Shown here in pieces: positions 44,543 through 64,000 of a stretch of 64,000 bases of DNA. Under the pieces are notes generated by a model. That model saw only the letters and a list, made by a program, of their open reading frames with translations, was not told the DNA's origin and did not search any database. Made by a program: the position numbers and the translations under genes. The stretch comes from a virus (Duplodnaviria; Caudoviricetes). Location: positions 64,001 through 128,000 of IMG/VR virus record IMGVR_UViG_3300022555_000003; one strand, 5' to 3'. Each line of letters begins with the position of its first letter. Position 1 is the stretch's first letter.

Positions 44543-44755
44543 ATGAACATTTATACTATTCCTGGCGCAAAAGTTATTTTCTCATATCCTACAAATGGTT
44601 ATGATGGAGACAATCTTATAGGAAGACAATATTTAACAGTTGGGTACGAATATACTGTTCAAAGAGTGAGCATCGGAAGATCATCTTCTAGAGTATATTT
44701 GAAAGAAGTTCCTGACATTGGGTTTAATACATGTATGTTTGAGGATATTATATGA
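44543..44755 (+). CDS. Hypothetical protein
   Basis: AAGGAG RBS. Confidence 0.55.
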   Translation: MNIYTIPGAKVIFSYPTNGYDGDNLIGRQYLTVGYEYTVQRVSIGRSSSRVYLKEVPDIGFNTCMFEDII

Positions 44756-45240
44756 ACGAAAAGTTTACATTTTTTTGGAGCGGACCATTTTCACAGTGGT
44801 ATCATTCTCCGTTTGAGAGTGGCGGAGTTACATTTCAAAATGCAGAAATGTATATGATGTATTATAAAGCAATACGCTTTAATGATAAAGAAACTGCTGA
44901 ACAAATATTAGTAGCTCCTACGCCAAAAGAAGTTAAAGCATTAGGTCGTAAAGTTGCAAATTTTGATAAGTCTGCATGGGATGACATTGCGCCACTCATT
45001 GTATATGAAGGGAACAAACTTAAATTCCAAACACATTCAGATATTAGAAAACTTTTACTTGATACAATAGGAACAACTTTAGTAGAAGCATCTCCATTTG
45101 ATACAATCTGGGGAATTGGTTTAAGTGAAGACAACCCAAATGCATTGCAACGTGAAACGTGGAGAGGTACAAATTGGTTAGGTGAAATTCTTACTCTTGT
45201 AAGAGAAGATCTAATGGAAAATTATGATAACTCAAAATGA
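44752..45240 (+). CDS. NADAR (YbiA-like) family protein
   Basis: FFWSGPFSQW, AEMYMMYYKA..F.D, KALGRKV..FD...W, KF, LVEASPFDTIWGIG, GTNWLGEIL. Confidence 0.9.
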   Translation: MNEKFTFFWSGPFSQWYHSPFESGGVTFQNAEMYMMYYKAIRFNDKETAEQILVAPTPKEVKALGRKVANFDKSAWDDIAPLIVYEGNKLKFQTHSDIRKLLLDTIGTTLVEASPFDTIWGIGLSEDNPNALQRETWRGTNWLGEILTLVREDLMENYDNSK

Positions 45241-45525
45241 AACTATTTTTGCTGGTATACTGCTCGTGATTTGTCTAGGTAGAATTATTTGGGTGCATTG
45301 GCATAATTATAAAGTTAGAAAAAACAAACAAATCGAAAAGTATTTGCTATAATTGTGAATATTATAAATTTCATTTACATAAAGCTGATCAATGTGAACA
45401 TCCAAAACACATAATTAAAGAGAAAGAAACTACAAATTATATTATAGGAGACGTAATTCCTGAGTGGTACAGATCACAAAATTGTTCTTTATTCAATAGA
45501 GATGGAAAGTGTCCAGTTTTCAAAT

Positions 45526-46308
45526 CTACACAATTACTTTCAGCGGCTGATATTTCAAACCAGTAGAATTTTTAACATTGCCACGTGGATTGCTAACAAA
45601 TTCACAATCATTTATAGTAGTTTTCATTGGCTTGTGATGGCCATATACCCAAGTACTAATTTTATGATTTTTATCTTCTGATTCGATATACTTTTGTGAA
45701 TTGCTACTAAGCTTAGAACAATCAGCATCAAATATCAAATTTTTATCTGGTACTGTATGGCTAATCATTACAATATTTGTAATATCTGGAGAGTTCTGCA
45801 TTTTTTTAACAGAATGTTGTAAATATTCCAAATCGTTATTATGAATAGTATATAGTTTCATATCATCCATCCAACTACCAGAATCTAATGTTCCGTTGTT
45901 ATTACTATTTTCTGGTCCCCACCAAAGATTTGCTGCCAAAAAGCTTGTTGAATTAATGATTAAAATATGTTCAAATAAATAACTCATATTTTCAATTTTT
46001 GATAGTTTATTTCCAAGATAATCTCTATTACTTTGAATATTATCAAAATTGTTTTGGTGTTCTAAATCTCCATCAATATATAAAACATGTTTATACACTG
46101 AAGAAATCTGCTTTAGTTCATATACTGTTCGATCCAGATCTGAACTAACGTCACCAGCTACTACTGCAATCAAACTGGTTGGGAATGCTTTCCAATTAAT
46201 ACTGGTTGGCCATTCTTCAACATATAAGTCGGAAATCAAATCAAACGATAATAGGGGATGTTGGCTACGCATTTTAATAGAACTCCTTTGTTCTTTTGAT
46301 ATTGACAT
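45526..46308 (-). CDS. Calcineurin-like metallophosphoesterase with degenerate metal ligands
   Basis: FDLISDLY, VVAGDV, IDGDLEH, ISHTVP, WVYGHH, FVSNPRG; start uncertain. Confidence 0.7.
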   Translation of the reverse strand: MSISKEQRSSIKMRSQHPLLSFDLISDLYVEEWPTSINWKAFPTSLIAVVAGDVSSDLDRTVYELKQISSVYKHVLYIDGDLEHQNNFDNIQSNRDYLGNKLSKIENMSYLFEHILIINSTSFLAANLWWGPENSNNNGTLDSGSWMDDMKLYTIHNNDLEYLQHSVKKMQNSPDITNIVMISHTVPDKNLIFDADCSKLSSNSQKYIESEDKNHKISTWVYGHHKPMKTTINDCEFVSNPRGNVKNSTGLKYQPLKVIV

Positions 46309-46483
46309 TTATCATATAATCTGTTATACTAAAGATATGGATGTCAAACTTGCTGGCTGCTATTGGGAAGTTGGCTACGCATTTTAATAGAACTCCTTTG
46401 TTCTTTTGATATTGATATTTATCATATAATCTGTTATACTAAAGATATGGATGTCAAACTTGCTGGCTGCTATTGGGATGTTG
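46255..46483 (+). repeat. 110-bp direct tandem duplication containing a promoter
   Basis: 46255-46364 repeated at 46365-46474 plus a 9-nt tail; TTGACA (copy 1) vs TTGATA (copy 2)-17-TATACT. Confidence 0.9.
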
Positions 46484-46671
46484 AATACAAACGGGACGGA
46501 GTCATGTTGAGTTTAGATTCAACGTTGCTGTTTCACCCAGCATATCAAACAGCATATCAAAATATAAGAGAATTTATACTATTAACTGAAATTGGCAAGC
46601 AGGTAAGTTTTAGACAAATTTGGTTATATAAAGCTGAATATTTAGAATTACTAATTTTGAGCAAGAGTTAA
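46447..46671 (+). CDS. Hypothetical protein (probably leaderless)
   Basis: ATG 6 nt after TATACT (46435-46440). Confidence 0.5.
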   Translation: MDVKLAGCYWDVEYKRDGVMLSLDSTLLFHPAYQTAYQNIREFILLTEIGKQVSFRQIWLYKAEYLELLILSKS

Positions 46672-46697
46672 CATTGGGACAGAAATTTATTTTTGAC

Positions 46698-46853
46698 ATG
46701 ACATCAGGTATAATCCTAGATTGGAATTGGTGGATTATGAGTGGTCCAGAAATTGACACATGGATTGTTAAAAATTATATTATTCGAACTGGTTCAGTAT
46801 TATACTTTCCAAACGAAGAAGTAAAAGTGTTGTTTGTACTTAAATGGTTATGA
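46698..46853 (+). CDS. LxW(G)-tail miniprotein, divergent member (not in ORF track)
   Basis: ...EIDTWIVKNY...YFPNEEVKVLFVLKWL*. Confidence 0.55.
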   Translation: MTSGIILDWNWWIMSGPEIDTWIVKNYIIRTGSVLYFPNEEVKVLFVLKWL

Positions 46854-47179
46854 ATTTAGAAAATAGAATTATATATAGCAATTATAATAATATAACGGAA
46901 ATATTATACCAAAAATTTGTATATTTAATAGTATCAAGAGGAGTTCCTGCAGTCTCGTTTGATTACTATGTTAAACATAGTTATTCTCTTATAAATTTGT
47001 TAATTAATTTAAAACTTCCATTTGTATTGATTACTAATTACAAATCTTCAGATATACTAGATAAAATTTATTGGTGTGAAGACGTATTTGATGATGCTTT
47101 TATTTGGACTCAAGATCAAATATTTTTTGAAAAAGAAGAACAAGTTACTTTATTCCATCTAAGATGGGGTGGCAAATGA
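46850..47179 (+). CDS. LxWG-tail protein, long member
   Basis: Ends FFEKEEQVTLFHLRWGGK*. Confidence 0.6.
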   Translation: MNLENRIIYSNYNNITEILYQKFVYLIVSRGVPAVSFDYYVKHSYSLINLLINLKLPFVLITNYKSSDILDKIYWCEDVFDDAFIWTQDQIFFEKEEQVTLFHLRWGGK

Positions 47180-47361
47180 GTATTGCATTTGATATCCATT
47201 GTAAGTATAACGGTACTAAGTTAGCACAAATAATTGATTGGCTAGAAACTAATGTGGGAGCTCAACATTATCAATGGATATGGGGTTGCAAAGAAGGAAC
47301 CGTTTTTATATTAGACGAAAAAGTAGCGTTGGCGTTTGCATTGGTGTGGGGTGTGAAATAA
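47176..47361 (+). CDS. LxWG-tail miniprotein
   Basis: IDWLETNVG..QWIW...ILDEKVALAFALVWGVK. Confidence 0.75.
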   Translation: MSIAFDIHCKYNGTKLAQIIDWLETNVGAQHYQWIWGCKEGTVFILDEKVALAFALVWGVK

Positions 47362-47549
47362 TTGTTGGATACAGTAATCAATATAGAAGTGAAGTCATTG
47401 ATTGGTTGCATGAAAACGTCGGGAGTTATGGAAAAGGATGGTATTGGCCAGCGTATAGTCCAGTTAATACTATAATAACAGGTCCTGTAGTTAACATCGT
47501 TCAAGAAAGTCATGCAATAGCATTTTTATTAACTTGGGGAGGAAAATGA
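47346..47549 (+). CDS. LxWG-tail miniprotein (start uncertain)
   Basis: IDWLHENVGSYGKGWYW...QESHAIAFLLTWGGK. Confidence 0.7.
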   Translation: MGCEIIVGYSNQYRSEVIDWLHENVGSYGKGWYWPAYSPVNTIITGPVVNIVQESHAIAFLLTWGGK

Positions 47550-47734
47550 CCATCAATAATATCAGAGATGATAAAGACTATCCACCTGTCAACTCACCCG
47601 AGATAACAACCTGGTTGTATGATAATATAGGTCGGTATGGTGATGGGTGGCGATGGGATCACACAGTAATCAATAGCCCTATTCAAATTGATGACGAGAA
47701 AAATATTACAGCATTTTTATTGAGATGGGGATAA
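47546..47734 (+). CDS. LxWG-tail miniprotein
   Basis: TWLYDNIGRYGDGWRW...IDDEKNITAFLLRWG. Confidence 0.75.
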   Translation: MTINNIRDDKDYPPVNSPEITTWLYDNIGRYGDGWRWDHTVINSPIQIDDEKNITAFLLRWG

Positions 47735-47737
47735 AAT

Positions 47738-47917
47738 ATGCTAGTTAAATATAATGTAATGCAAAATCAAACCCAAATTATTAACTGGTTAATTGAGAAT
47801 GTAGGGAAGTATAATTGTGGTTGGTCGTGGGTTCAACCAATATCTACAGATTATTTTATTCAAATTGACAATGAAAAAGATGCGATAGCATTTTTATTAA
47901 GATGGAGTGAAGAATGA
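47738..47917 (+). CDS. LxW-tail miniprotein (not in ORF track)
   Basis: INWLIENVGKYNCGWSW...IDNEKDAIAFLLRWSEE*. Confidence 0.75.
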   Translation: MLVKYNVMQNQTQIINWLIENVGKYNCGWSWVQPISTDYFIQIDNEKDAIAFLLRWSEE

Positions 47918-48089
47918 TATTATTGAATACAGCACACATCACAAATTAAACGATATAATCAAATGGTTACATAAAAATATAGGTTCATACGATCTTGGAT
48001 GGCGTTGGGATAACAGTACTCCTGATAATAATAATGTTTGCATAGATGATGAGAAGAATGCTGTAATATTTGCGTTACTTTGGAAATAA
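47907..48089 (+). CDS. LxW-tail miniprotein
   Basis: IKWLHKNIGSYDLGWRW...IDDEKNAVIFALLWK. Confidence 0.75.
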   Translation: MKNDIIEYSTHHKLNDIIKWLHKNIGSYDLGWRWDNSTPDNNNVCIDDEKNAVIFALLWK

Positions 48090-48090
48090 G

Positions 48091-48276
48091 ATGAGAGTTG
48101 AATTTAAAGACAAGACAGATTTATACAACCTAATCGATTGGTTATATGAAAATATAGGTCCTTTAGAATCTAAGGAGTGGAGATGGGAATTAAAACCTAC
48201 ACCATTCAATAATTTTATCTACATCAAAAATAAAAAACATGTCACAGCATTCTTACTGAGATGGGGTGGAAAGTGA
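48091..48276 (+). CDS. LxWG-tail miniprotein
   Basis: IDWLYENIGP...WRW...IKNKKHVTAFLLRWGGK. Confidence 0.75.
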   Translation: MRVEFKDKTDLYNLIDWLYENIGPLESKEWRWELKPTPFNNFIYIKNKKHVTAFLLRWGGK

Positions 48277-48440
48277 TAATTGATTACAGAAAGTATCCAA
48301 GTGAACAAGACATCAAAATAGTTGTTTGGTTAAATGAAAATATAGGTTCTCATGGCCATGGTTGGTATTGGACATATAATCATTCTCTTTATATAGACGA
48401 TGAAAGTAATGGAATAGCATTTTTATTAAATTGGGCATAA
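48273..48440 (+). CDS. LxW-tail miniprotein (not in ORF track)
   Basis: VWLNENIGSHGHGWYW...IDDESNGIAFLLNWA*. Confidence 0.7.
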   Translation: MIIDYRKYPSEQDIKIVVWLNENIGSHGHGWYWTYNHSLYIDDESNGIAFLLNWA

Positions 48441-48446: not shown

Positions 48447-48483
48447 TTGACAAGCTTATAACTACCTGCTATACTTAAAGAGT
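48447..48483 (+). promoter_or_regulatory. Early promoter
   Basis: TTGACA-17-TATACT followed by TAAAGAGTA. Confidence 0.75.
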
Positions 48484-48558
48484 AATAATTATTGTAACAA
48501 GATAATTTATTAACGATAAGATCTATCCACAAAGGATAGAAAAGGAAATTGAAACACA

Positions 48559-48798
48559 ATGCCATTTACGCAAATTCGTAGTACACAGAATGATTTTTTA
48601 GTTAATTATCTACGGGGTACTAATGTAGAACTAAGTTCCGCTCAGGCGAGCAGCCTGTACGGTATTCGGAACTTACGGGCTCGTATTAGTGAGCTTCGTG
48701 GTATGGGCCTTCGCGTTCGTACTCGTATTAACACAACCAATCATACTTCATATGCAGTTTCTGCACGTGATATTTTTGGGAGCAGAGCTCAGCTCTAA
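48559..48798 (+). CDS. Small winged-helix DNA-binding protein
   Basis: LS..QA..LYGIRNLRARISELR..GL.V. Confidence 0.65.
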   Translation: MPFTQIRSTQNDFLVNYLRGTNVELSSAQASSLYGIRNLRARISELRGMGLRVRTRINTTNHTSYAVSARDIFGSRAQL

Positions 48799-49508: not shown

Positions 49509-49706
49509 ATGCCTACAAAAATTGAATTATCAAGATTACAATTAGCTGATGATGCCCATAAATTAGAAGTTAAGGCATTGAAAGATACGATTGAACGTCA
49601 AAAGAAAACAATTGTTTTTCTTACGAGAGTTGCGTGCATGGCAACAAGAAAAATGCGAGAAGCTGCTGATGGTTTAGAATTCGATATTGAACGAGGAACA
49701 GAATGA
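49509..49706 (+). CDS. Hypothetical coiled-coil protein
   Basis: ORF track. Confidence 0.5.
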   Translation: MPTKIELSRLQLADDAHKLEVKALKDTIERQKKTIVFLTRVACMATRKMREAADGLEFDIERGTE

Positions 49707-50119
49707 AATTATTAATATTATTTATTATTCTAATTTCTGTTGGATATAGCCAACAGATAGTAACTTTAACAACCCCAAAAGGACAATTAGTTGTACAACT
49801 AGATGATTCACTTTTTATAGATACTAGTGTTACACCTCCAAAGTTAAAGGTAAGACCTGTAACAAAGGATGTTCTTCGAGTATACAACATGAAATCAACT
49901 CAAAATTATTTTGATTTAGTTGATCCATCTGGTGGTGTTGTTGATACTTCAACTGTTGAATTTATGAGAAATGGATTAACACTTACAAATTCCATAGATT
50001 ATACTATCAAAGGAACAGTATTAACATGTATAGTTTCTTCATGTACTGTAGTTGCTTCAGATGTTATTCGTATCAAATTTAAAGCAAGTATTAAATATCC
50101 ATTATCAAAAAGTCTATAA
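49703..50119 (+). CDS. Putative secreted protein
   Basis: Signal peptide-like MKLLILFIILISVGYS-Q. Confidence 0.6.
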   Translation: MKLLILFIILISVGYSQQIVTLTTPKGQLVVQLDDSLFIDTSVTPPKLKVRPVTKDVLRVYNMKSTQNYFDLVDPSGGVVDTSTVEFMRNGLTLTNSIDYTIKGTVLTCIVSSCTVVASDVIRIKFKASIKYPLSKSL

Positions 50120-50126
50120 TTATAAA

Positions 50127-51110
50127 ATGAATAAACTATTATTAGTATTACTATTGAGTTTTCCATTATGGTCTCAGACATTAGTTAAACAAGAACAACT
50201 TCAATCACAGACTCATCTATCAAATGAAGGAGATTGGTGTCCAGTTTCTATTTTTACCCGAACTTCAGATACTATAATTACTTTCACTAAGGATGCTCCA
50301 ACTACAAGATCTTGTTTCTTACATTTCTCACTTACTTCAACTATTCTATGGACTAAATCAGATACAATTATGATTTTGGATAATTCGACTCCGTTAAATG
50401 ATCTTGTATTTTTTTACTGGTTAGGTCCTGATCTTCATATATCTTCGAGAACTCCTTTTTTCTCTTGTACGATTTGTAAAATTGATGCTCCACGTGTTTT
50501 AGATGTATTTCCAGCAAATGCTTTAATAGCTGGTATGTACAATGTTATTAACGGAAGATGGGATTTATCTGGCCATCCAATTTTTAATCAACATCAAATA
50601 ATTGGGTCTCCAATGGCAATTACTTATATTCCAAATCAAGGTTATACTTTTACTTTTGATATTACTAATCCTAAAGTAGTAGCAGCAACAGAGGCAATCA
50701 ATAATCTAGCTCCTACTGTTAATAAGTCTCTAACTATGATCCAAAATGCTACAACTACTGGAATTAATGAAGTTCAAACTCATGTAAAAAAAGCTGGAGC
50801 AATGCCTTCAGATGTTAATATTCAAAAAGCACAAACTCAATTATTAGAAATACAAACAAAAATAGCAGATTTAAATAATCAAATTAAAATAATAAATCCA
50901 CAAAGTATATATCGTCGTGACCAATATGATTCACAACAGATGAATTTAATACAATCATATATGATAAATTTAGGTATGAAACGCAAAGTCGAAATACCTA
51001 AAACATCAACTTCTACTTGTATTTTAGGTGATTGGTCAATCTCAAATACCTTTCTTTATCTTTGTACTGAAAATTGGAGAAGAATACCTCTTGATAATTC
51101 TACATGGTAA
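50127..51110 (+). CDS. Putative secreted protein with coiled coil
   Basis: Signal peptide-like MNKLLLVLLLSFPLWS-Q; start adjusted. Confidence 0.6.
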   Translation: MNKLLLVLLLSFPLWSQTLVKQEQLQSQTHLSNEGDWCPVSIFTRTSDTIITFTKDAPTTRSCFLHFSLTSTILWTKSDTIMILDNSTPLNDLVFFYWLGPDLHISSRTPFFSCTICKIDAPRVLDVFPANALIAGMYNVINGRWDLSGHPIFNQHQIIGSPMAITYIPNQGYTFTFDITNPKVVAATEAINNLAPTVNKSLTMIQNATTTGINEVQTHVKKAGAMPSDVNIQKAQTQLLEIQTKIADLNNQIKIINPQSIYRRDQYDSQQMNLIQSYMINLGMKRKVEIPKTSTSTCILGDWSISNTFLYLCTENWRRIPLDNSTW

Positions 51111-51469
51111 TGAAGATTAAAACAAAACACGGTGATGTACTTTTTGAATTTGCTGGTGATACATTAGTTGGCGCTCAATTAGAATATGCATATTTAAATT
51201 ACGCATATTTGCGTGATAAGAACTTACAAGATGCCAACTTTAAAAATGCATATTTATATGGGGTTGATTTTCGAGATGCAAATTTGAGTGGAGCGGATAT
51301 GCGTGGCGCATATTTATGTAAAGCAGATCTGCGTGGCGCCAAACTAGATGGCGTATTAATAAATGATATGACACAAATTAGTTCAGCGACCAAACTTGAT
51401 CCCGAACATCTTACATATCTGTTGCTCAAAGGGATTAAATTTTCGAAATATTCTAAATATGATTATTAG
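51110..51469 (+). CDS. Capped pentapeptide-repeat protein, copy 5
   Basis: MKIKTKHG...[13 protein letters not shown]. Confidence 0.85.
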
Positions 51470-51935
51470 AACATTAAAGAATGTAGTACGGCATACATTA
51501 CCATCTGATACATTTGTTGGTGCAGAGTTAAGTTATCTAAATTTAAATGACGCAGATTTACAAGGTGCAGATTTAAGCAAAGCATACATGTATTATACAA
51601 GGCTAGGTAGTGCAGATTTAAGTTATTCAATTTTATATAGAACAAATTTATATTGTGCTACTTTAATTGGTGCAAATTTATATTGTGCTGATCTACATGA
51701 AGTCAATTTACGTGGAGCAGATCTAAGTGATGTGGATTTACGTGGAGCAAATTTAGAATGTGCCAATTTATGTGGCGTCAATTTGACTGGTGCAGATTTA
51801 CGTGGAGCTAATTTTACAGGTGTAGAAATAAATCGCAACACAACATTTCATGAAACTACTAGATTCGATCCTGAGCTAATCACATATTTGATCCTAAAAG
51901 GATTAACATATTTCCCTTTTGCTGTCAACTGTTAA
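51459..51935 (+). CDS. Capped pentapeptide-repeat protein, copy 6
   Basis: MIIRTLKN...[13 protein letters not shown]; start adjusted. Confidence 0.85.
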
Positions 51936-51979
51936 TTTATAATAATTTTAGTTGACATATAGCTGGTCGAACTGCTATA

Positions 51980-52267
51980 ATGGAAAACAAATTAACAGTT
52001 TCAACAGTACGGGAAGCATTACAATATTATATTGGTGTGTCAAGACTAAAAACTGGTGAAATTATAATCCGCAAAGGATTTTATTATCACCACGGATATG
52101 ACTGCCGTCAACTAGCTGATTTTGTTACCGAGAAGCTGCAAGCTGCTGGAATTAAAGCAGTTATTGTTGATAGGGGAGAGAAATGGAAGCCTTTTAGGGG
52201 CGGTTCAACACTTGCCAACAGTAGCCATTGGTTTGTTATAGTTAAAGCGCTGGTTGACATTTCCTAA
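51980..52267 (+). CDS. Hypothetical protein
   Basis: ORF track; its ATG overlaps the -10 box of TTGACA-18-TATAAT, so start uncertain. Confidence 0.5.
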   Translation: MENKLTVSTVREALQYYIGVSRLKTGEIIIRKGFYYHHGYDCRQLADFVTEKLQAAGIKAVIVDRGEKWKPFRGGSTLANSSHWFVIVKALVDIS

Positions 52268-52290
52268 CCAAACTGCTATACTTAAAGAGT
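52254..52290 (+). promoter_or_regulatory. Early promoter
   Basis: TTGACA-17-TATACT-TAAAGAGTA. Confidence 0.75.
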
Positions 52291-52297
52291 AAACATT

Positions 52298-52522
52298 ATG
52301 ACATTGCGAAAAACAGTAGAAATTAAAAAAGTTGTTGACAAAGCAAACGAGATGTTGAAAAATTCAACATGTTCTCCAGCTGAACGAAACATGCTTTCTT
52401 CGTTTATTGGTTCATTGCTCCATGACATTGACATGTATCAAGGATTTACATATTTGGACATGCCATATAAACCAGGTGTCACAGATGAATCGCGTAGGCA
52501 TTATTTTCTTAGATGCTATTAA
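52298..52522 (+). CDS. Hypothetical protein
   Basis: Follows early promoter. Confidence 0.55.
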   Translation: MTLRKTVEIKKVVDKANEMLKNSTCSPAERNMLSSFIGSLLHDIDMYQGFTYLDMPYKPGVTDESRRHYFLRCY

Positions 52523-52526
52523 GTAT

Positions 52527-52688
52527 TATTTTCAAAGCGCACAAAAAGTTATTGGGAAGGGTGATCTCCAACTCAGTAATAAATGTTCAGGGGTTCGACT
52601 CCCTTGTCAGCGTTACAGCTGAACGGGTCCATGTAGAATTAGTGGCCACTGAGTCTCATACATTGAATTTTGGTGCGCTTTGAAAATA
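52527..52688 (+). ncRNA. Candidate structured RNA with 16-bp closing helix and tRNA T-arm
   Basis: TATTTTCAAAGCGCAC (52527-52542) is the exact reverse complement of 52673-52688; internal AGGGG-TTCGACT-CCCTT. Confidence 0.55.
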
Positions 52689-52690
52689 TT

Positions 52691-56146: not shown

Positions 56147-56299
56147 GTCGTTTGTTTTCAGTGCTTAACTCGACACAAAACGTCGTATAACGCAGTTTTT
56201 AACTGGAGTTGGGGCTCTTGTACCAGATATGCCCTAAGAATTGCTTAAACGACGTTTTATTTTGGTTGACATTTAACCAACCAAAATGCTATACTTAAA
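56143..56299 (+). repeat. 157-bp hairpin plus promoter cassette, copy 2
   Basis: Near-identical to 28352-28508; TTGACA-18-TATACT. Confidence 0.85.
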
Positions 56300-56304
56300 G
56301 AGTA

Positions 56305-56772
56305 ATGAAAACCTACACAGAAGCTGAAATTAGACACAAACTAGCAACTGATGAGCGTTGGGTACGAAGGGCACTCATTAGATTGTACGAACGCCAAACA
56401 CAATCTGAGCAGAGCGCAGAGTCCACTCAAAATCACAACTGCAAGGGCTTTGCTCCGTGCGACGCTAAATGGTTTTCTCGTTTGGCAGTGTTCGTAACAA
56501 AGTACCCCAAAAAGCAGTTGACTCCAAAACAGTTGGCGTTGGTTTGGCGTCCATTTAAGAACCAGCCCGCCATAACAAAGTATGCTGGTCAGCTTATGAA
56601 GGTGATGGCAGAAGACGCAGCGGTAAAGCCAACAGTAGCCCAAATGAATTCAGCTTGCATTAGGTGTGGTGAAGAGCAGCCCATGTGTAAGTGCGAACGG
56701 AAAGCAATGGATGTTGAACACGAACGGTTGATGGAAGAAAAGGCGTTCATGTCCGAAATGATGTATTCATAA
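56305..56772 (+). CDS. Hypothetical early protein
   Basis: ATG 9 nt after TATACT; QT..EQ....T..HN..GF...DA motif; visibly more GC-rich than flanks. Confidence 0.65.
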   Translation: MKTYTEAEIRHKLATDERWVRRALIRLYERQTQSEQSAESTQNHNCKGFAPCDAKWFSRLAVFVTKYPKKQLTPKQLALVWRPFKNQPAITKYAGQLMKVMAEDAAVKPTVAQMNSACIRCGEEQPMCKCERKAMDVEHERLMEEKAFMSEMMYS

Positions 56773-56946: not shown

Positions 56947-57131
56947 TGTACGTTAAAACACAATTCGAAAAAGATTCTCTGATTGTTCGATACGAGCACG
57001 AACTTGTTTGGTTGAAAAATAAAATTGAGGAATTGAAATTGAAGCTAGATAAAAAACCATCAACTTCAAAACAAATTAAAGACTTGCAACGTCAAATTCG
57101 CCAAACTGAAGTTTTCATTGCATTCATTTGA
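56946..57131 (+). CDS. Small coiled-coil protein
   Basis: TGATG coupling. Confidence 0.45.
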   Translation: MYVKTQFEKDSLIVRYEHELVWLKNKIEELKLKLDKKPSTSKQIKDLQRQIRQTEVFIAFI

Positions 57132-57162
57132 AAATATAAAAAAGATATGTTATAATAGTATT

Positions 57163-57527
57163 ATGAAATGTTTATTGTTAATGTTGTTTTCTGTAGGAGC
57201 ATTGGCGCAATCGTTTGATATCTCAGACAAGAAGTTATTTTATTATTCGGTTGCAGCTCATGGTACTGGAACATATATCTAGATGCTTGGTCATCTTGGA
57301 ATCAAAATGAGGCCAATCAAACACTCCAAGGTGCAAACGGTAAATTTGATGCAAAAGGTGTTGCTATCAAAAGTGCATTCTTTGCTGGAACAACTGTTGT
57401 TGAGCTATTAATTCTGAAAAAGTATCATCCAAAATGGTTGGTAAAGACTTTTACTGTTGCCAACTTTGCTTTAGGTGGAGAATATACTGCAATAGCTATT
57501 AGTAACAAGTACAGACAAAACAATTAA
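57163..57527 (+). pseudogene. Secreted/membrane protein gene broken by an extra AT in ACATATATCTAG (about 57277)
   Basis: Signal peptide MKCLLLMLFSVGALA-Q; removing 2 nt joins ...GTGTY to LDAWSSWNQNEAN...KGVAIK...SNKYRQNN*. Confidence 0.6.
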
Positions 57528-57529
57528 TA

Positions 57530-57919
57530 ATGCAAATCAAATCCAAATCTGGTAAAATACTACATACATTTGATGATAAGACAGATCTGTATGGAGCAAA
57601 TTTAGATCGATTACATTTGCACAATGCAGATTTACGTGGAGCAGATTTGACTTGGGCAACTTTATGTCACACAAATCTGAATGACGCCGATTTAAGCCAT
57701 TCAAATTTGTGGTGGGCAGATTTGAGTTTTACATTGATGAGTGGTACAAATCTACATGGAGCAAATTTAGATTGTGTAAACATGTATTGTGCGGATCTAC
57801 GTGGAGCAAATTTAGAAAATATAGTACTAAACGAAAATACTAATATTGGTCCATCAACTAAACTTGATCCTGAGCAGCTTACATATTTGATGTTAAGAGG
57901 AATTAGATATGGAGATTAA
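57530..57919 (+). CDS. Capped pentapeptide-repeat protein, copy 10
   Basis: MQIKSKSG...LDPEQLTYLMLRG. Confidence 0.85.
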   Translation: MQIKSKSGKILHTFDDKTDLYGANLDRLHLHNADLRGADLTWATLCHTNLNDADLSHSNLWWADLSFTLMSGTNLHGANLDCVNMYCADLRGANLENIVLNENTNIGPSTKLDPEQLTYLMLRGIRYGD

Positions 57920-58355
57920 AACAAAATTTGGTGCAGTAATATTTATAACATTTAATGATACATTGGTTGGTGAAAATTTATGGGGAGCCGACTTTAGTCA
58001 TGCAGATTTCAATGGTATGAATTTAAGTTATGTAAATTTGTGTGAATCAAATTTATATTCTGTAAATTTCTGTCAAGCAGATTTAAGTGGAGCAGACTTA
58101 CTTGGAGCAAACTTATGTAAATCTGATTTACGTGGAGCTAATTTATTTGGAGCAGATTTATTTTGTACAAATCTAATAGGTGCTAATTTAAGTGGAGCAA
58201 ATTTATGTAATGTTGATTTACGTGGAGTCGATTTACGTGGAGCAAAGTTAGATAATGTTATAATAGATCGATTTACAAGAATTAGCAGTACAACTAAAAT
58301 AAGTAAAAAACAACTTACTTATCTATTATTAATTGGTCTCAAATATGCAAATTAA
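57909..58355 (+). CDS. Capped pentapeptide-repeat protein, copy 11
   Basis: MEIKTKFG...ISKKQLTYLLLIG. Confidence 0.85.
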   Translation: MEIKTKFGAVIFITFNDTLVGENLWGADFSHADFNGMNLSYVNLCESNLYSVNFCQADLSGADLLGANLCKSDLRGANLFGADLFCTNLIGANLSGANLCNVDLRGVDLRGAKLDNVIIDRFTRISSTTKISKKQLTYLLLIGLKYAN

Positions 58356-58695
58356 CACAACAATAAGATCATTAACTGGTGAATTATTGCATGTTGGTCC
58401 CGAACTAATTCTATCCAATTTGGATTTAAGTTATGCTAATTTATATGGTAGACGTTTGAGTTTTACATTGATGAGTGGTACAAATCTACTTGGGGCAGAT
58501 TTATTTGGAGCAAACTTACGTGGTGCAGATTTAAGTGGTGCAGATTTAAGTGGTGCTGATATGCGGCAAGCAGATCTACGTGGAGCAAAGTTAGATAATG
58601 TGAAAATAGATGACGATACAAGAATTAGCAGTACAACTAAAATAAGTAAAAAACAACTTACATATTTACTTTTGTTGGGCCTTAATTATGGGTAG
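58345..58695 (+). CDS. Capped pentapeptide-repeat protein, copy 12
   Basis: MQINTTIRSLTG...ISKKQLTYLLLLG. Confidence 0.85.
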   Translation: MQINTTIRSLTGELLHVGPELILSNLDLSYANLYGRRLSFTLMSGTNLLGADLFGANLRGADLSGADLSGADMRQADLRGAKLDNVKIDDDTRISSTTKISKKQLTYLLLLGLNYG

Positions 58696-58726
58696 CATAA
58701 ATAAAATTGTAGATAGGAAATTAATT

Positions 58727-58798
58727 GCGAGGTTCGTCTAATCAGGACGCCACCCATTCCCGGTGGAAATGGAAGTTGAACGCTTTCACTTCGCTCCA
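58727..58798 (+). tRNA. Non-canonical tRNA with Gly-type acceptor end and atypical loops
   Basis: Acceptor GCGAGGU/ACUUCGC, U73, encoded CCA; D stem GUC/GAC; anticodon stem CCACC/GGUGG, loop CAUUCCC; T stem GGAAG/CUUUC, loop UUGAACG. Confidence 0.75.
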
Positions 58799-58805
58799 AA
58801 CAAAC

Positions 58806-58994
58806 ATGCCTTTATATGAATATCGATGTTCGAAATGTAATAAATTATTAGAATTGTTTAGACCAATGGATAATCACCCAGCGTGCTGTCCAACTTGCTA
58901 TGAACCTAAGGGACTAGTTTTATTACCAAGCAGAAGTTCTTTTAAATTGAAAGGTACCGGTTGGTATCAGACTGATTACGCTGGAAAGAAATGA
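58806..58994 (+). CDS. FmdB-family zinc-ribbon protein
   Basis: MPLYEYRCSKC...CPTC...SSFKLKGTGWYQTDY. Confidence 0.85.
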   Translation: MPLYEYRCSKCNKLLELFRPMDNHPACCPTCYEPKGLVLLPSRSSFKLKGTGWYQTDYAGKK

Positions 58995-59380
58995 GTTTGT
59001 GCTCAATAATTGGCGATTCAATAGCAGTGGGAATAGCTCAGTTTAGACCTGATTGTGTTTCTTTTGCTAAACAAGGTGTAGCATTATATTCAATAAATAA
59101 TCAATTATTTCACGTGAGTAAAAATACAAATACACTTATTATAAGCACAGGAAGTAATGATTCATACCTAACTGTAACAGATGTAGTTAATTTTAGATCA
59201 CAAATTACAGCTAAAGAAGTTATTTGGATTTTACCAATGAAAAAAGCCAATAAGAAGATTATAAAACAAGTATCAAATCAATTTAAAGATTCATTTATAG
59301 ATTTTTCAACAGTAGTAAGTACAGACCGGATTCATCCAACATTTAAAGGATATAAGCGGATAGCTGAGCTAACAAAATGA
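58991..59380 (+). CDS. SGNH/GDSL hydrolase-like protein
   Basis: IIGDSIAVG, STGSND, DRIHP. Confidence 0.75.
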   Translation: MSLCSIIGDSIAVGIAQFRPDCVSFAKQGVALYSINNQLFHVSKNTNTLIISTGSNDSYLTVTDVVNFRSQITAKEVIWILPMKKANKKIIKQVSNQFKDSFIDFSTVVSTDRIHPTFKGYKRIAELTK

Positions 59381-59676
59381 GAGTATTAACAGCAAGAGAA
59401 TTATTAAGCAAGAAACTTGTGTTTGGAGATCCCAAACAAATTGAAGCATTAACTGTATTAAGAGTATTAAATCATCTTAACGAATTAAAGCAAAAATATC
59501 CAAATATTGATTATACTTGTGATGAATGTGATGGTTCGGGTTATTTCTATGATAATGACACAGATGATTGTGATGTCTGTGACGGTAAAGGTCATGTTGA
59601 ATTATTTAATTTGGAATATGTAGATCAATATCAAATTGAAGATCAAATTCAATTTATAATGGAACATTGTAAGTAA
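59377..59676 (+). CDS. Protein with DnaJ-type zinc-finger motifs
   Basis: CDECDGSG...CDVCDGKG. Confidence 0.65.
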   Translation: MRVLTARELLSKKLVFGDPKQIEALTVLRVLNHLNELKQKYPNIDYTCDECDGSGYFYDNDTDDCDVCDGKGHVELFNLEYVDQYQIEDQIQFIMEHCK

Positions 59677-59690
59677 ATTAAGTCCTAAAG

Positions 59691-59705
59691 ATAAATACTT
59701 ATATG
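59691..59705 (+). promoter_or_regulatory. T4-like late promoter motif ATAAATA (representative copy)
   Basis: Same motif at 2757, 5885, 10872, 11163, 11688, 14953, 15237, 17067, 18301, 22726, 31584, 41785 and 58697, mostly just before structural-type genes; resembles the T4 gp55 promoter TATAAATA. Confidence 0.7.
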
Positions 59706-61181
59706 ATATTACGAGAACTCTATGAGCAATTATCTGAAGGAATCAACGACCCTCATAATTTTAAAGCACTTATTACAATAGGGGCCCCTGGTTCAGGAAA
59801 ATCTAGTGTTGTTAAAATATTAACAGCTGGTAGTGGTTTAACTAAGGTTGATCCAGATCAATTTTATGAAATGTTTAAATCACGACACGGATATAAAGAA
59901 TTTGAAACCCCTCCTGACATTGAAAAAGATCCAGACTGGGAAAAAGCCAAGTTATCACAGCGCTCCAGACGAGCAAATCTATTAGAAGCCCATCGTGGTA
60001 TAATTCTAGATACAACTGGAAGATATGTAGAAGCTGTAATTAGAGATATATCTAGATTACGTAGCGAAGGGTATGATGTCGCTATGTTATATGTTGATGT
60101 GTCAACAAAAACTGCTATAGATAGACAACAATTAAGAAGCCGAAAAGTAAATCCTGACATTGTTGAACAATTTCACAATGAAGTAAAAGCTAATATATCA
60201 GAATATAAATCAATATTAGGTGATAATTTTGTAATATATAATAATGATTTAGGTAATATTGATACTAGCGACCCAAATAGATTTAAATCTAATATACCAA
60301 ATACAACTCCTAGAAAATGGATTACTAAATGGCTTAACACACCAGTTAATAATGAAAAAGCGAATAAATGGAGAGCAACACAGAAACCAGCTGCTGGAAG
60401 ACGTGATAATCCATTACATGAAACCATTACTGTGCCGTCTGATCCATCTAGTGATGCAAATATACAAGAACTAGCAGATATAATCAAAAAAAAATGTAGT
60501 AAATATCTAGAGTCTGTTCAACCAGGTCAATTTCTATGGCATGGAACTAGTAGTAAAACAAAAGATATGGTGTATGCATCGAAAAGTCGTGCTGTTAGAA
60601 TACCAGTTGACAGTGATAAATTTATAACATCTTTGTTTGATAAAGCATTAAATGAACATGGGTTTATTGCTACCAGAAGTAATAGTATATTTGTAATTGG
60701 CGACAAAAACGCCGCTGAAGAGTATGGAACATTATATGCTATTTTTCCAATAAACGGTTTTAATTTTACCTGGTCTATGTCACACAATGATGTAATATTA
60801 AGTAAAAATACTGGATTAAGATATAAATTATTTAATCCCGAAAAATTACAACAAATCTTGAAGAATAAACTCGCTCACTGTTCTTCAATTGATATAGCAA
60901 ATAAAGATAACATCAATCAGTTTTTAAAAGGTAATATTAAAAAATTGTACGGAATAACCTTCACTCCTAAAGAAATTCAAACAATGTTTGATAGTGATGT
61001 AGCAATGAAGAATTTCAATTTTTCAAAAGAAAACTTATCAAAAGCAATTAATAGCGAAAATGAAATATATTTAAGTGGAAAATATATTGCTATACGTGGT
61101 GGACTAGTTTTATCTAGGGTATGCTCTATATTATTCCCAATGGTAAAACCTCCACATATAAAGAAAAGGCGTCATTCATGA
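59703..61181 (+). CDS. Zeta-toxin-like P-loop kinase fused to ADP-ribosyltransferase-like domain
   Basis: GAPGSGKS, IILDTTG, LYVDVS..TA..R in N-half; LWHG..RSNSIFV..YG..YAIFP..FTWS..ENEIY in C-half. Confidence 0.65.
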   Translation: MILRELYEQLSEGINDPHNFKALITIGAPGSGKSSVVKILTAGSGLTKVDPDQFYEMFKSRHGYKEFETPPDIEKDPDWEKAKLSQRSRRANLLEAHRGIILDTTGRYVEAVIRDISRLRSEGYDVAMLYVDVSTKTAIDRQQLRSRKVNPDIVEQFHNEVKANISEYKSILGDNFVIYNNDLGNIDTSDPNRFKSNIPNTTPRKWITKWLNTPVNNEKANKWRATQKPAAGRRDNPLHETITVPSDPSSDANIQELADIIKKKCSKYLESVQPGQFLWHGTSSKTKDMVYASKSRAVRIPVDSDKFITSLFDKALNEHGFIATRSNSIFVIGDKNAAEEYGTLYAIFPINGFNFTWSMSHNDVILSKNTGLRYKLFNPEKLQQILKNKLAHCSSIDIANKDNINQFLKGNIKKLYGITFTPKEIQTMFDSDVAMKNFNFSKENLSKAINSENEIYLSGKYIAIRGGLVLSRVCSILFPMVKPPHIKKRRHS

Positions 61182-62092
61182 GAATTTTTGAAGTATCAGA
61201 AAAAACTCAATTAATAGATTCTGATGTTTTTAGAAAAGCTCTAAATTTATTAAAAGAACATAATATTGGGTCTAGGGCATTCAATTTTGCTATATCTCCA
61301 TTGGTCGACGAATTAATATTTGATTGTCATCAATTTTATAATACATTAATAACGCAGAGTAGCAAGTTCTTAAACGAAATGAAAAATTCTGGAACTTTAC
61401 CATTTAGAGGAAGTGAAAGTGCTTCTGTCGAAAACGGTATTGGTATTTTTCAATCAGCATCCATTGAGAATCGTCGTCCAATGTCAAGTGTATCTACTTT
61501 ACAAACTCAACTAAGTGCAGCAATGTCGTCAGCTGGGATTAAAGCTACAAGAAGTAATAGTATATTCACAACAGGAAGATATGAACACGCTAATTCATAT
61601 GGTATAGTTAGTGTTATATTTCCAAAAAATACAGCCAATTTTAGTTGGTCTGATTCAGAAGATTACAAAGATATTATATTAAATTTACGTGATGAGGGTG
61701 TAACTAATACATTTAAAGATTCTGAAATATATAAGAAAGCACTATCATTAGTAAAAACTTATCCAGAAAAATACGATTTAAATAGATTACTTAGTAAAAA
61801 ATGTGGAGAAGCTTCTATTTCATATTATGATTTTAAATTCAAGCATAAAGACATTGCTAGTATGTCTGGTTTTTATAAGCATCAATTTGAAGAATTTATA
61901 CATCTAGATACTATTAGACTTCTTAAAGAAATGAATATTAAGACTTCAAACTTTTCAGCAGCATTAGATGCAGCTGGAGAAATTTTAATTAATGGAGAAT
62001 ATATCAGTATACGAACAGATTCATATATTATATTAAATTATATTTTTCCTGATCTACCTCGACTTCCGTCTCCACCATTTGATCAATATTAA
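61178..62092 (+). CDS. ADP-ribosyltransferase-like paralog
   Basis: PFRG...ATRSNSIFTT..YG..VIFP..FSWS...GEILINGEYISI. Confidence 0.55.
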   Translation: MRIFEVSEKTQLIDSDVFRKALNLLKEHNIGSRAFNFAISPLVDELIFDCHQFYNTLITQSSKFLNEMKNSGTLPFRGSESASVENGIGIFQSASIENRRPMSSVSTLQTQLSAAMSSAGIKATRSNSIFTTGRYEHANSYGIVSVIFPKNTANFSWSDSEDYKDIILNLRDEGVTNTFKDSEIYKKALSLVKTYPEKYDLNRLLSKKCGEASISYYDFKFKHKDIASMSGFYKHQFEEFIHLDTIRLLKEMNIKTSNFSAALDAAGEILINGEYISIRTDSYIILNYIFPDLPRLPSPPFDQY

Positions 62093-62100
62093 GGATAATT

Positions 62101-62991
62101 ATGATACTAAACGAATTACTAGCGCCTGGTGAAAAGAAACCATTAACATTCAGAAGTGATAGGCGTGCGCTTGACAAGTCTAGTAGTGATAAAATAATGC
62201 AAATTTACGATCCGATAATTCAACACATTTTTACTGATTGTAGCAGATTCTTAGAAGAGATAAAAGGTACAAAATGTTTATGCTATCATGGTTCCAATGA
62301 TGTTAGGAAAAATAATTCTCCAATTTTTATGGGAAAATCAATGAATGATCGACGGGCTAGAAATTCATCTACATTATCAACAATGATATTTAATAATGCA
62401 CTATCTAAGATTGGTATTAAAGCAAACAGAAGTAACAGTTTATTTGTGGTGTCTGACTATACCGCAGCAAAAGGATATGGAAATAAAGTTTATGTAATAT
62501 TTCCAAAAAATACTTCTGATTATTGTTGGACTAAGTATCTAGACTTGATTTTACCTGGTGTTTCATATCTGCCAGTTGATAATAAAATAGATTATTCAGA
62601 TGAATACAAACTACTTATTAAAATGGCATCTGCACTGCCTGAAAGTATTGAAAAAGAAAATCTATTAGAAAAAATTAAAGAGTTACCAGAAAAAAATCTA
62701 GAAGAAATATTAGAAACTTTAAAGTATGATATCAAATGGGAAGAGACTGGGGCAGACCTATTAGAAAAATCGGGCATGGATGAATTATTAAATGAAGAGA
62801 ACCCAAAATTAATAAAGTATTTTCCAATGGATACTGCTTCTTTTGTTGAGAAGTATCAACCAAAAAATACAGATTTACAAACAGCATTAATAAGAGCTGT
62901 AGAAATATATATACATGGTGAATACATAGCAATTGAAGTATCTATGTACGAGAATTTACGAAAATATTATCCGGAGTTACCAACAGAATGA
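62101..62991 (+). CDS. ADP-ribosyltransferase-like paralog
   Basis: CYHG...ANRSNSLFVV..YG..VYVIFP..YCWT...VEIYIHGEYIAI. Confidence 0.55.
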   Translation: MILNELLAPGEKKPLTFRSDRRALDKSSSDKIMQIYDPIIQHIFTDCSRFLEEIKGTKCLCYHGSNDVRKNNSPIFMGKSMNDRRARNSSTLSTMIFNNALSKIGIKANRSNSLFVVSDYTAAKGYGNKVYVIFPKNTSDYCWTKYLDLILPGVSYLPVDNKIDYSDEYKLLIKMASALPESIEKENLLEKIKELPEKNLEEILETLKYDIKWEETGADLLEKSGMDELLNEENPKLIKYFPMDTASFVEKYQPKNTDLQTALIRAVEIYIHGEYIAIEVSMYENLRKYYPELPTE

Positions 62992-63845
62992 GACTACTAG
63001 AATTTTCAAATACAACAATCATACCGAAATCAAGTCAATATTCTGATTTAAAAAATATTACTGTTGAGATATTAACTCCACTTGTTAATCAGATCAATGA
63101 TAACTGTGGTGATTGTCTAGAAGCGATGCATGTGTCACAATGTACAGCATGGCGAGGCTTTAGGAATCAATTTGACTTAGCTTTTTCTGCAGAGTCAGTT
63201 GAAAATAGAAGAGTTAAAGATAGTGATCCAATTCTAACTGCTAAAGTTGATAGTATATTACAAAAAAATGGAATAGAAGCTCGTAGGAGTAACAGCATAT
63301 TTGTTACAAGTAAACAAGGATTAGCATCTGTTTATGGAAGAGTCTATGCTATATTCCCATATGATTATGCAGAATTTAGTTGGTCATCCAATGAAAAGTT
63401 TGACGATGTAGTACTTAATCCACGTGATTCCGGTATGTCAAGATGGTTAATAAATCAGTTAAAAAATTATGAAGTATTTAGAAATATATTTAATAATGTA
63501 CATAATAATCCTGATAATGAATATAGTAAAAAAGACAGAACATATATATTAAATATACTAAAACAAATAAGTGAAGAAGATTACGCCACAGCAGAAGTTA
63601 GTTTGCGGTCATTATCGTTAGCATTTAGCGATTTAGCTGATGAACTTGGTTATGATGATGATACTTTTATTCAATATTTTTCAATAGATGAAAAAGCAAT
63701 GATGAATGATTTACGAATTAAAACTACTGACTTTGCAAGTGCTCTATCTAATGAAGGTGAAATTTTAATAAATGGGGAATATATTGCAGTAAGTGAAAAA
63801 TTATACTTACGAATACAAGAACTTTTTCCAGGGATTTTTAGATAA
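62988..63845 (+). CDS. ADP-ribosyltransferase-like paralog
   Basis: AWRG...ARRSNSIFVT..YG.VYAIFP..FSWS...EGEILINGEYIAV. Confidence 0.55.
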   Translation: MRLLEFSNTTIIPKSSQYSDLKNITVEILTPLVNQINDNCGDCLEAMHVSQCTAWRGFRNQFDLAFSAESVENRRVKDSDPILTAKVDSILQKNGIEARRSNSIFVTSKQGLASVYGRVYAIFPYDYAEFSWSSNEKFDDVVLNPRDSGMSRWLINQLKNYEVFRNIFNNVHNNPDNEYSKKDRTYILNILKQISEEDYATAEVSLRSLSLAFSDLADELGYDDDTFIQYFSIDEKAMMNDLRIKTTDFASALSNEGEILINGEYIAVSEKLYLRIQELFPGIFR

Positions 63846-64000
63846 TGAAACTACTAGAATTTTCTATGTATGTTATTAATAATGACATAGAATCTATATC
63901 AAAATTTGACACCATTGTAAGAGGTATGATTGATGTTAATTTTACTGATAAAGAAATATGGCATGAACAACATACCAGTCATTGGAAATCATTGAAAGAC
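63845..64000 (+). CDS. 3'-truncated ORF with the same MKLLEFS N-terminus
   Basis: TAATG-coupled; open to window end. Confidence 0.55.
   Translation, partial: MKLLEFSMYVINNDIESISKFDTIVRGMIDVNFTDKEIWHEQHTSHWKSLKD

Follow-up and report, generated by a model that had tools for sequence, protein, structure and literature searches.

A probable two-module plastic accessory region in an uncultured T4-like jumbo phage

We analysed a stretch of 64,000 nucleotides (the window) from a virus of the Caudoviricetes (Duplodnaviria), comprising bases 64001-128000 of the single-contig, 242,080-bp IMG/VR record IMGVR_UViG_3300022555_000003, and concentrated on the block of small genes that fills its last 20 kb. 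Coordinates are those of the window unless marked as genome. The window is AT-rich (G+C content about 32%), and upstream of the accessory block it encodes a DnaB-type helicase, a class II ribonucleotide reductase, an ATP-dependent DNA ligase and ClpX. The block, on the plus strand, extends beyond the window edge to about position 65382. A megablast search of a phage collection returned no useful near DNA match. The findings below favour, with some confidence, the reading that this 20-kb stretch is a plastic (hyperplastic) accessory region of an uncultured 242-kb T4-like jumbo phage, and that it consists of two modules. These are an early accessory module (module A, 44.1-59.7 kb) and a cluster of ADP-ribosyltransferase-like (ART-like) and other enzymes (module B, 59.7 to about 65.4 kb), which probably belong to different expression classes.

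The promoters, repeats and paralog arrays of module A are as follows.

44142-44170, plus strand: perfect sigma70-type promoter, TTGACA-17-TATAAT, at the start of the early block
46255-46474, unstranded: tandem 110-nucleotide (nt) duplication, 98% identical, spanning the 5′ end of the phosphoesterase gene and a plus-strand promoter
46674-48440, plus strand: miniprotein array 1, with seven firm members (47164, 47367, 47546, 47738, 47907, 48091, 48261)
48447-48485, plus strand: early promoter of a shared family, TTGACA-17-TGcTATACT followed by TTAAAGAGTA
51104-51935, plus strand: pentapeptide-repeat genes 1 and 2 (PF00805), with N- and C-terminal caps in common
51952-51981, plus strand: further perfect promoter
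52254-52292, plus strand: early promoter of the shared family
54004-54418, plus strand: miniprotein array 1b, two divergent members (hidden Markov model (HMM) 1e-8 and 2e-11)
54678-56146, plus strand: pentapeptide-repeat genes 3-5, with 11-nt start/stop overlaps
56140-56309, plus strand: full cassette of hairpin, T-run, early promoter and ribosome-binding site, PeSL-like; another copy lies at 28349-28518
57530-58695, plus strand: pentapeptide-repeat genes 6-8 (PF00805)

Strong promoters were defined as sites with at least 11 of 12 matches to TTGACA-N16-18-TATAAT. Nine of them lie in 44-64 kb, all on the plus strand, compared with 2.25 ± 1.4 in Markov shuffles, and across the genome they group at genome 39-56, 108-121 and 135-160 kb. 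The promoters of the region have an extended consensus in common. Those at 48447 and 52254 are versions of the cassette that lack the hairpin, and additional near-perfect promoters lie at 44142, 46302/46412, 51952 and 57128. This family of near-consensus sigma70-type promoters would make module A (about 44.1-59.7 kb) an early-transcribed block.

The stop codon of a pentapeptide gene marks the start of the full cassette, and a search with nhmmer (query 56140-56310) recovered about ten copies in the genome. Aligned copies follow one order: a 5′ box, TAAGTC-TTTGTTTTC; a conserved 14-bp outer stem, AAAACGTCGT...ACGACGTTTT, with a variable interior; a T-run; TTGACA-N17/18-TGcTATACT; and TTAAAGAGTA directly before the ATG. 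The hexamer AAAGAG is conserved among the copies. In the copy within the region, the hairpin, T-run and TTGACA-N18-TATACT occupy 56177-56295, and in one copy elsewhere a tRNA-Ser sits in the hairpin slot. Two cassette copies, at genome 51376-51400 and 50761-50790 (L089), have the 5′ box TTTGTTTTC as its reverse complement, GAAAACAAA. A covarying RNA was considered for the hairpin and rejected: compensatory changes are absent and it is the sequence of the stem that is conserved, a pattern that recombinational spread of a repeat would produce.

The architecture of the cassette resembles that of PeSLs, elements that join a stem-loop to a near-perfect sigma70 promoter, are concentrated in the hyperplastic regions of T4-type phages, are tied to insertions and deletions, and have been suggested as agents of cassette shuffling (Arbiol et al. 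2010, PMC2839356; Comeau et al. 2014, PMC4122927). As in PeSLs, a stem-loop or terminator stands immediately 5′ of a near-consensus sigma70 early promoter, and numerous conserved copies per genome lie among small variable open reading frames (ORFs) between core genes. As in PeSL-bearing hyperplastic regions, gene content varies between relatives. Unlike PeSLs, the hairpin here is far longer (about 80 nt, with its 14-bp conserved outer stem and variable interior), and the cassette has a conserved 5′ box and often directly adjoins a pentapeptide stop codon. Recombination between cassette repeats would be a likely route for spreading and reshuffling gene cassettes, above all pentapeptide genes.

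The eight pentapeptide genes, in groups of two, three and three, all match PF00805 (tandem A(D/N)LXX repeats) well above its curated cut-off (E 1e-20 to 6e-42; 71-141 bits, cut-off 20.2), in agreement with the first-pass annotation of the sequence, which had counted eight. Adjacent genes overlap by 11 nt at 55099-55109, 55610-55620, 57909-57919 and 58345-58355. At each such junction the ATG of the next gene lies within the last codons of the previous one (Y-G-D/N-stop), so that tandem duplicates would stay translationally coupled. The genome holds about 19 pentapeptide genes, and the closest relative of a given gene is often at another locus. Beyond this genome, 218 phage records contain pentapeptide proteins; several have more than one copy, and in Microcystis phage MaMV-DC the number of places reaches 8. 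Gene 5 carries an in-frame TGA at 56069-56071, a position at which four of the five paralogs compared have Arg, and its conserved C-terminal tail stays in frame past the TGA to a TAA at 56144; the TGA may have arisen by nonsense mutation or assembly error, or it may be read through. The pentapeptide beta-solenoids are probable DNA mimics of graded length.

The miniproteins are about 60 amino acids long and carry the motif W-L/M-x-E/D-N-I/V-G...W-x-W...L-x-W, in which Trp, Asn, Gly, Trp, Leu and Trp are the conserved positions. The genes of array 1 overlap head-to-tail. Nine of the 11 miniproteins proposed at first pass are firm, namely seven at 47164-48440 and two at 54004-54418, the latter recovered by an HMM built without them. 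The other two, ORFs 46674 and 46844, hold motif fragments only, are missed by the family HMM and remain marginal. All-against-all BLASTP found at least 17 members in the genome, with a second array at 53-54.7 kb of genome. Hardly any members occur outside this lineage, the exceptions being scattered copies in a few large phages, whereas roughly 50-60 public contigs encode miniproteins identical to those of this genome; the family has no Pfam or PHROG match, and a protein atlas returned viral hypothetical proteins only. An AlphaFold2 model (pLDDT 87) shows a beta-alpha-beta-beta-alpha arrangement whose structural matches are generic (ferredoxin-, KH-, RRM- or ACT-like, Z about 5). We infer that pentapeptide proteins and miniproteins are host-interaction cargo: eight pentapeptide proteins, 9-11 lineage-specific 60-residue miniproteins and a YbiA-type NADAR protein would make module A a set of small host-interaction proteins.

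Module B opens at 59.7 kb with a different kind of upstream motif and a different set of proteins.

59690-59697, plus strand: GATAAATA, a motif resembling T4 late promoters, 5 nt upstream of the first leader gene's ATG
59703-61181, plus strand: 492-residue protein with N-terminus M-I-L-R-E, in which a P-loop kinase (residues about 20-170) is joined to an ART-like domain
61178-62092, 62101-62991 and 62988-63845, plus strand: three ART-like paralogs, each starting M-R/I-L/I-x-E
63845-64000, plus strand: start of a 76-residue leader-bearing ORF; the cluster continues beyond the window edge

Past the edge follow a 234-residue protein, an HExxH protein and then the first minus-strand gene; the cluster ends at about 65382. 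The 234-residue protein resembles a nucleotidyltransferase by eye and has no NCBIfam match. The N-terminus of the fusion protein matches AAA_33/Zeta_toxin and a polynucleotide-kinase PHROG (2e-7), and its C-terminal domain is paralogous to the products of the next three genes. An R...S-x-S...E pattern is invariant in 14 aligned paralogs (R84, S113, E268), with the Arg in L-Y-R-G, the Ser in a block N-S-x-F-T-T/S-S and the Glu in H-E-I/V-L. This order of invariant Arg, Ser block and Glu is the R-S-E order of ADP-ribosyltransferases (the group of Alt, ModA, ModB and cholera toxin), and on this motif we call the family ART-like. The genome contains 18 such genes, of which 14 form one minus-strand array at genome 192-205 kb.

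Structural comparison points weakly in the same direction. An AlphaFold model built from the paralog alignment reached a pLDDT of 67, and exhaustive structural alignment with VIA-align gave a list mostly of ART folds at Z 2.3-3.5, led by DarT and including Arr, diphtheria toxin, exotoxin A, cholix, PARPs, Tpt1, CteC and ParT. Foldseek returned nothing for the model at E≤0.001, a profile search against PDB sequences found no ART, and hhalign of the family with T4 Alt gave a probability of 0.3%. A kinase-ART fusion and three more ART-like genes had been noticed at first pass; the kinase, the paralogy and the R-S-E pattern bear this out in part, whereas the searches by Foldseek, by PDB profile and against Alt lend it no support. 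On this evidence, we call the family ART-like by motif, with weak structural support, and do not place it in the Alt family. In phrog_12810 (a 788-position profile) the kinase and the ART-like parts match different segments, in the opposite order; ART-kinase fusions seem to recur in other phages.

What unites the proteins of module B is their N-terminus. A leader, M-R/K/I-L/I-x-E, opens every ORF from 59703 onwards (59703, 61178, 62101, 62988, 63845), five consecutive ORFs in the window, and at least 29 ORFs genome-wide. The same leader opens 48 of 98 ART-family ORFs (49%) in unrelated phage contigs, compared with 30 of 405 other ORFs (7%). In T4, the prohead protease gp21 cuts behind L/I-x-E, and a varied set of internal proteins, anti-restriction proteins among them, is loaded by means of N-terminal capsid-targeting sequences (PMC9026906, PMC3012670). 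The leader fits the L/I-x-E cleavage motif of that protease, and also the notion of short targeting sequences of this kind. The motif GATAAATA, spaced 5-6 nt from an ATG, precedes about 29 ORFs genome-wide, other leader genes included, and the recurrent late-like form is the variant GATAAATA-N5-ATG only. If GATAAATA is a late promoter, the mRNAs of those ORFs, about 29 in number, would be almost leaderless.

Read in this way, module B (59.7 to about 65.4 kb) would supply a kinase-ART-like fusion, three ART-like proteins, and small, nucleotidyltransferase-looking and HExxH proteins that are produced late, taken up into the head and delivered together with the DNA, in the manner of T4 Alt and the T4 internal proteins. 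Most likely, judging from the leaders and promoters, module B is late-expressed and packaged and 44.1-59.7 kb is early-expressed. As with T4 Alt and IPI-III (PMC9026906, PMC3012670), there is an N-terminal L/I-x-E, diverse cargo united by the leader alone, and a late-promoter-like motif preceding the cluster. As in Alt, most members here have an ADP-ribosyltransferase-type R/S/E pattern; unlike Alt, they show no detectable sequence similarity to it, and there are 18 paralogs rather than one, one of them fused to a kinase. Compared with T4 IPI-III, the leader has 5 residues, not 10, and packaging is here a prediction.

At first pass the region had been taken for a single counter-defence island working as a genomic accordion, in which recent, selectable amplification of three arrays furnishes variants that counter host immune proteins. 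Some features would suit this account. Head-to-tail overlapping tandem arrays keep translational coupling, the ART-like family has 1-7 copies per 20 kb in 41 IMG/VR loci of other phages, the 110-nt tandem duplication is recent and shows active unequal recombination, and the nonsense codon in one pentapeptide copy is expected under gene birth and death. The identities between paralogs speak against it. The top pairwise amino-acid identity is 58% among pentapeptide proteins genome-wide, 45% among the miniproteins of the region and 35% among its four ART-like genes, with no close paralog pair and no near-identical tandem copies, and a recent accordion is therefore not supported. In addition, all three families are dispersed over the whole genome (about 19 pentapeptide, 17 or more miniprotein and 18 ART-like members by all-against-all BLASTP), so that the paralog families recognized earlier are real and yet not specific to this region. 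A link to defence, from PADLOC and the literature, exists for the NADAR protein alone, and two modules, probably differing in expression class, describe the region better than one single island. We regard the accordion account as rather improbable. Low paralog identity and dispersal would instead fit old duplication plus spread. Genomic accordions of poxviruses are recent, near-identical, reversible amplifications; the present region resembles them in that a large DNA virus carries host-interaction genes in tandem arrays, and differs in that all copies are deeply diverged.

The sole recent duplication is the non-genic 110-nt tandem repeat at 46255-46474, which extends over the initial codons of ORF 46447-46671. 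Through it a divergent promoter region occurs twice, and the beginning of that ORF has a truncated second copy. Together with the TGA in pentapeptide gene 5 and a split ORF at 57164-57528, it is a sign of current turnover. No close relative was found in IMG/VR with either the kinase-ART protein or the cassette pattern; RNA ligases in IMG/VR and metagenomes were at most 50% identical to the one encoded here, and the neighbourhoods of the ligase in 80 IMG/VR loci did not have the arrays in common. In the best relative, L001, which is distant (46-64% amino-acid identity), the ligase lies between homologs of genome genes 51776 and 55867, the slot that holds the seven-copy miniprotein array here, and four tandem miniproteins stand at another site. 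These relocations and the variable copy numbers of the ART-like loci indicate that content and order are not fixed. Fixed array size and order across relatives, named at first pass as part of what would speak against the proposed island, was thus not what we found in L001 and the ART-like loci compared. The plastic region with repeated early promoters that had been proposed is upheld by the promoter enrichment (nine strong plus-strand sites where about two are expected) and by gene relocation relative to L001.

We next consider what the cargo may do, beginning with the one gene that has a link to defence.

44752-45240, plus strand: NADAR-domain protein of YbiA type (PF08719 3e-49, 167.9 bits, cut-off 35.1)

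This full-length match above the curated cut-off confirms the NADAR assignment made at first pass; the best NCBIfam match is TIGR02464 (YbiA-type, 8e-48), and PADLOC reports PDC-M42C (3e-41). A screen against a defence-system library had been suggested, and PADLOC matched the NADAR protein and none of the other ORFs of the region. YbiA-type NADARs remove ADP-ribose from guanine in DNA, and one is the antitoxin of YarT (PMC11125620); diverse phage NADARs counter DarTG1 (PMC11257639). The present protein is likewise a stand-alone NADAR in a T4-like phage, as is AdfN/gp30.3, which acts against DarTG1 (PMC11257639), and it resembles the YbiA-type antitoxin of YarT (PMC11125620). The NADAR family common to AdfN and YbiA-type proteins hydrolyses ADP-ribosyl-guanine in DNA. 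Unlike AdfN/gp30.3, the protein falls in the YbiA/riboflavin-type clade (TIGR02464), and BLASTP found no significant similarity to T4 AdfN/gp30.3 (E 0.085). Comparison with these systems makes a counter-defence role of the region plausible.

YbiA-type NADARs can be antitoxins of ART toxins (PMC11125620), the weak structural matches of the ART-like family are led by DarT, and a NADAR gene and an ART cluster occur in one accessory region. On these grounds one could imagine that the ART-like proteins, loaded into the capsid through a minimal 5-residue propeptide M-R-L/I-x-E, ADP-ribosylate host DNA or RNA, with the NADAR protein as self-protection. The early YbiA-type NADAR and the injected ART-like proteins would then form a phage-borne toxin/antidote pair, analogous to YarT-YbiA, and the kinase fusion and the remaining enzymes with a leader would also belong to this injected set. 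We consider this version very unlikely.

Alternatively, the arrays may serve host take-over rather than evasion of immunity, with pentapeptide proteins acting on gyrase, topoisomerase or other DNA enzymes, miniproteins retuning host or phage complexes, and ART-like proteins modifying RNA polymerase or the translation machinery in the manner of T4 Alt, ModA and ModB. The wide distribution of pentapeptide proteins in unrelated phages is compatible with this, as are the annotation of T4 Alt as an enzyme that ADP-ribosylates RNA polymerase and reaches the host together with the DNA, and the lack of any PADLOC or anti-defence match for the array families. However, one conserved housekeeping target hardly explains so many diverged copies, and an anti-restriction protein is found among the T4 internal proteins that use the same loading route (PMC3012670). 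Host take-over as the function of the arrays is, in our judgement, unlikely.

Candidate RNA-repair genes and a structured element are listed next.

45526-46308, minus strand: metallophosphoesterase-like protein (phrog_1649 6e-18), the sole minus-strand gene of the block
52525-52690, plus strand: unique structured element, not a tRNA (minimum free energy -56 kcal/mol, z -4.98 against shuffles)
52932-54002, plus strand: ATP-dependent RNA ligase of Rnl5 (Naegleria/Deinococcus) type, with PHA02142 OB and RNA_ligase domains

The ligase matches PF21189 and PF09414, the structure of Naegleria Rnl5 (5cot, 6e-78) and, above its cut-off, TIGR02306. With an N-terminal OB domain, an adenylyltransferase domain and a retained K-x-D-G, read K-I-D-G in the alignment to 5cot, it is the RNA ligase that the first-pass annotation had reported. 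The phosphoesterase reported there has its PHROG match in its favour but no Pfam or NCBIfam match, and its motifs are non-canonical. Where calcineurin-type references have DxH, GDxxDR, GNH(D/E), H and GHxH, motif I here reads D-L-Y, motif III G-D-L-E and motif V G-H-H-K.

In T4, Pnk and Rnl repair cleaved tRNA against anticodon nucleases, and bacterial Pnkp-type enzymes combine a kinase, a phosphoesterase and a ligase. A comparable RNA-repair set may be present here, with the metallophosphoesterase-like protein as end healer, the Rnl5 ligase as sealing enzyme and the P-loop kinase of module B as a possible third part; by analogy with T4 Pnk and Rnl, the three together could repair cleaved RNA. 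As in T4 and in the Pnkp-type enzymes, all three gene types occur, here within 15 kb. Unlike T4 Pnk and Rnl, the ligase is of Rnl5 type (a nick sealer in Naegleria) and not Rnl1 or Rnl2, and the three genes are dispersed, one on the opposite strand and one fused to an ART-like domain; unlike Pnkp-type enzymes, the phosphoesterase motifs are degenerate. The T4 alt / 30 / 30.3 / pseT neighbourhood contains gene types similar to those of the region. Synteny with it was considered and rejected, as gene order differs and the sequences are not similar.

Two tRNA-like elements had also been proposed, and these were not recovered: ARAGORN found no tRNA in the window (the genome has 20 tRNAs and a tmRNA, all elsewhere), relaxed thresholds gave scattered noise inside coding genes only, and Rfam returned no match, either in 40-64 kb (E≤1) or in 52480-52740 (E≤10). 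The call was probably prompted by two non-coding stretches, 52525-52690 and 56072-56265, the second of which is one copy of the repeated hairpin-plus-promoter cassette. The first folds into three hairpins inside a 16-bp closing stem, with the tRNA T-arm signature GGTTCGACTCC on one of them; of the six other GGTTCGA.TCC matches in the genome, five lie within called tRNA genes. It has no second copy in the genome (nhmmer found no homolog). The layout of this element, just 5′ of the RNA ligase, recalls tRNA-like Y RNAs, although the Rfam search gave no match. As a conserved partner of the ligase it was rejected, since none of 136 related loci (0/136) has a T-loop-like motif or a tRNA within 700 nt upstream of the ligase.

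Several points weigh against parts of the two-module account. Without compensatory stem changes, nothing shows that the hairpin structure itself is selected; only one full cassette lies inside the region, the remaining promoters having no hairpin; and, no close relative having been found, the likeness to PeSLs, which are defined by indels bounded by repeats, is one of architecture. For module B, the support for an ART fold is weak (Z≤3.5, pLDDT 67) and the family lacks significant similarity to T4 Alt, exact copies of the T4 late octamer TATAAATA show no enrichment (33 sites on both strands against about 77 expected), and the propeptide would have 5 residues, compared with the 10-residue targeting sequence of T4. 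In the putative repair set, several canonical metal ligands are missing from the phosphoesterase-like protein, and the kinase resembles T4 Pnk around the P-loop only.

The other features of the region are the following.

48559-48798, plus strand: winged-helix HTH_39 protein (PF14090 1.4e-9)
49703-51110, plus strand: two proteins with N-terminal signal-peptide-like segments, the second with a short C-terminal match to a tail-protein PHROG
56305-56772, plus strand: protein of unknown function (phrog_21015)
57164-57528, plus strand: signal-peptide ORF, then a start-less ORF in another frame, with a promoter at 57128-57156
58725-59676, plus strand: Zn-ribbon protein, SGNH-like mini-hydrolase and CxxCxGxG zinc-finger protein
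58991-59380, plus strand: the SGNH-like gene, 129 residues, with GDS, GSND and DRIH blocks (SGNH blocks I, III and V)

The three motif blocks speak for the SGNH hydrolase named at first pass, but its Pfam score is below threshold (17.6 bits, cut-off 23.6) and it has no NCBIfam match. At 57164-57528, a 39-residue signal-peptide ORF ends at a TAG and is followed by a start-less ORF of about 80 residues that resembles real coding sequence; the gene may be broken, the assembly may be wrong here, or a frameshift, programmed or otherwise, may account for the split. Elsewhere in the record, genome 1-326 and 240966-242078 give an inverted match in a six-frame self-comparison, which may represent inverted terminal repeats or an assembly artefact. 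More small-ORF paralog families (11 and 10 members) lie at genome 38.3-39.6 and 160-161.3 kb and at 61.9-76.2 kb; paralog arrays are a general trait of this genome.

One may also ask whether the region is largely evolutionary debris, in which ORFans and decaying duplicates ride on promoter-containing repeats with little selected function. The in-frame stop in a pentapeptide gene, the split ORF, the truncated ORF copy within the 110-nt duplication, the two marginal miniprotein-like ORFs and the non-canonical phosphoesterase motifs could all be read in this way. Against it, motifs and open frames persist across paralogs that are 25-45% identical, the structure of the miniprotein is predicted with confidence, the catalytic motif of the ligase is retained, and the leader is conserved across unrelated phages. 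We consider wholesale decay extremely improbable and retain the reading of a plastic accessory region with an early and a probably late, packaged module.

Hyperplastic regions, PeSLs and capsid-targeted effectors are principles already described for T4-type phages, and the value of the present analysis is mainly that of a catalogue with candidates for screening. It provides a concrete, testable map of how accessory genes are organised in a T4-like jumbo phage, and it puts forward candidates for new host-interference proteins: the pentapeptide-linked, long-hairpin version of the PeSL, the leader-tagged enzyme cluster and the 60-residue miniprotein family.

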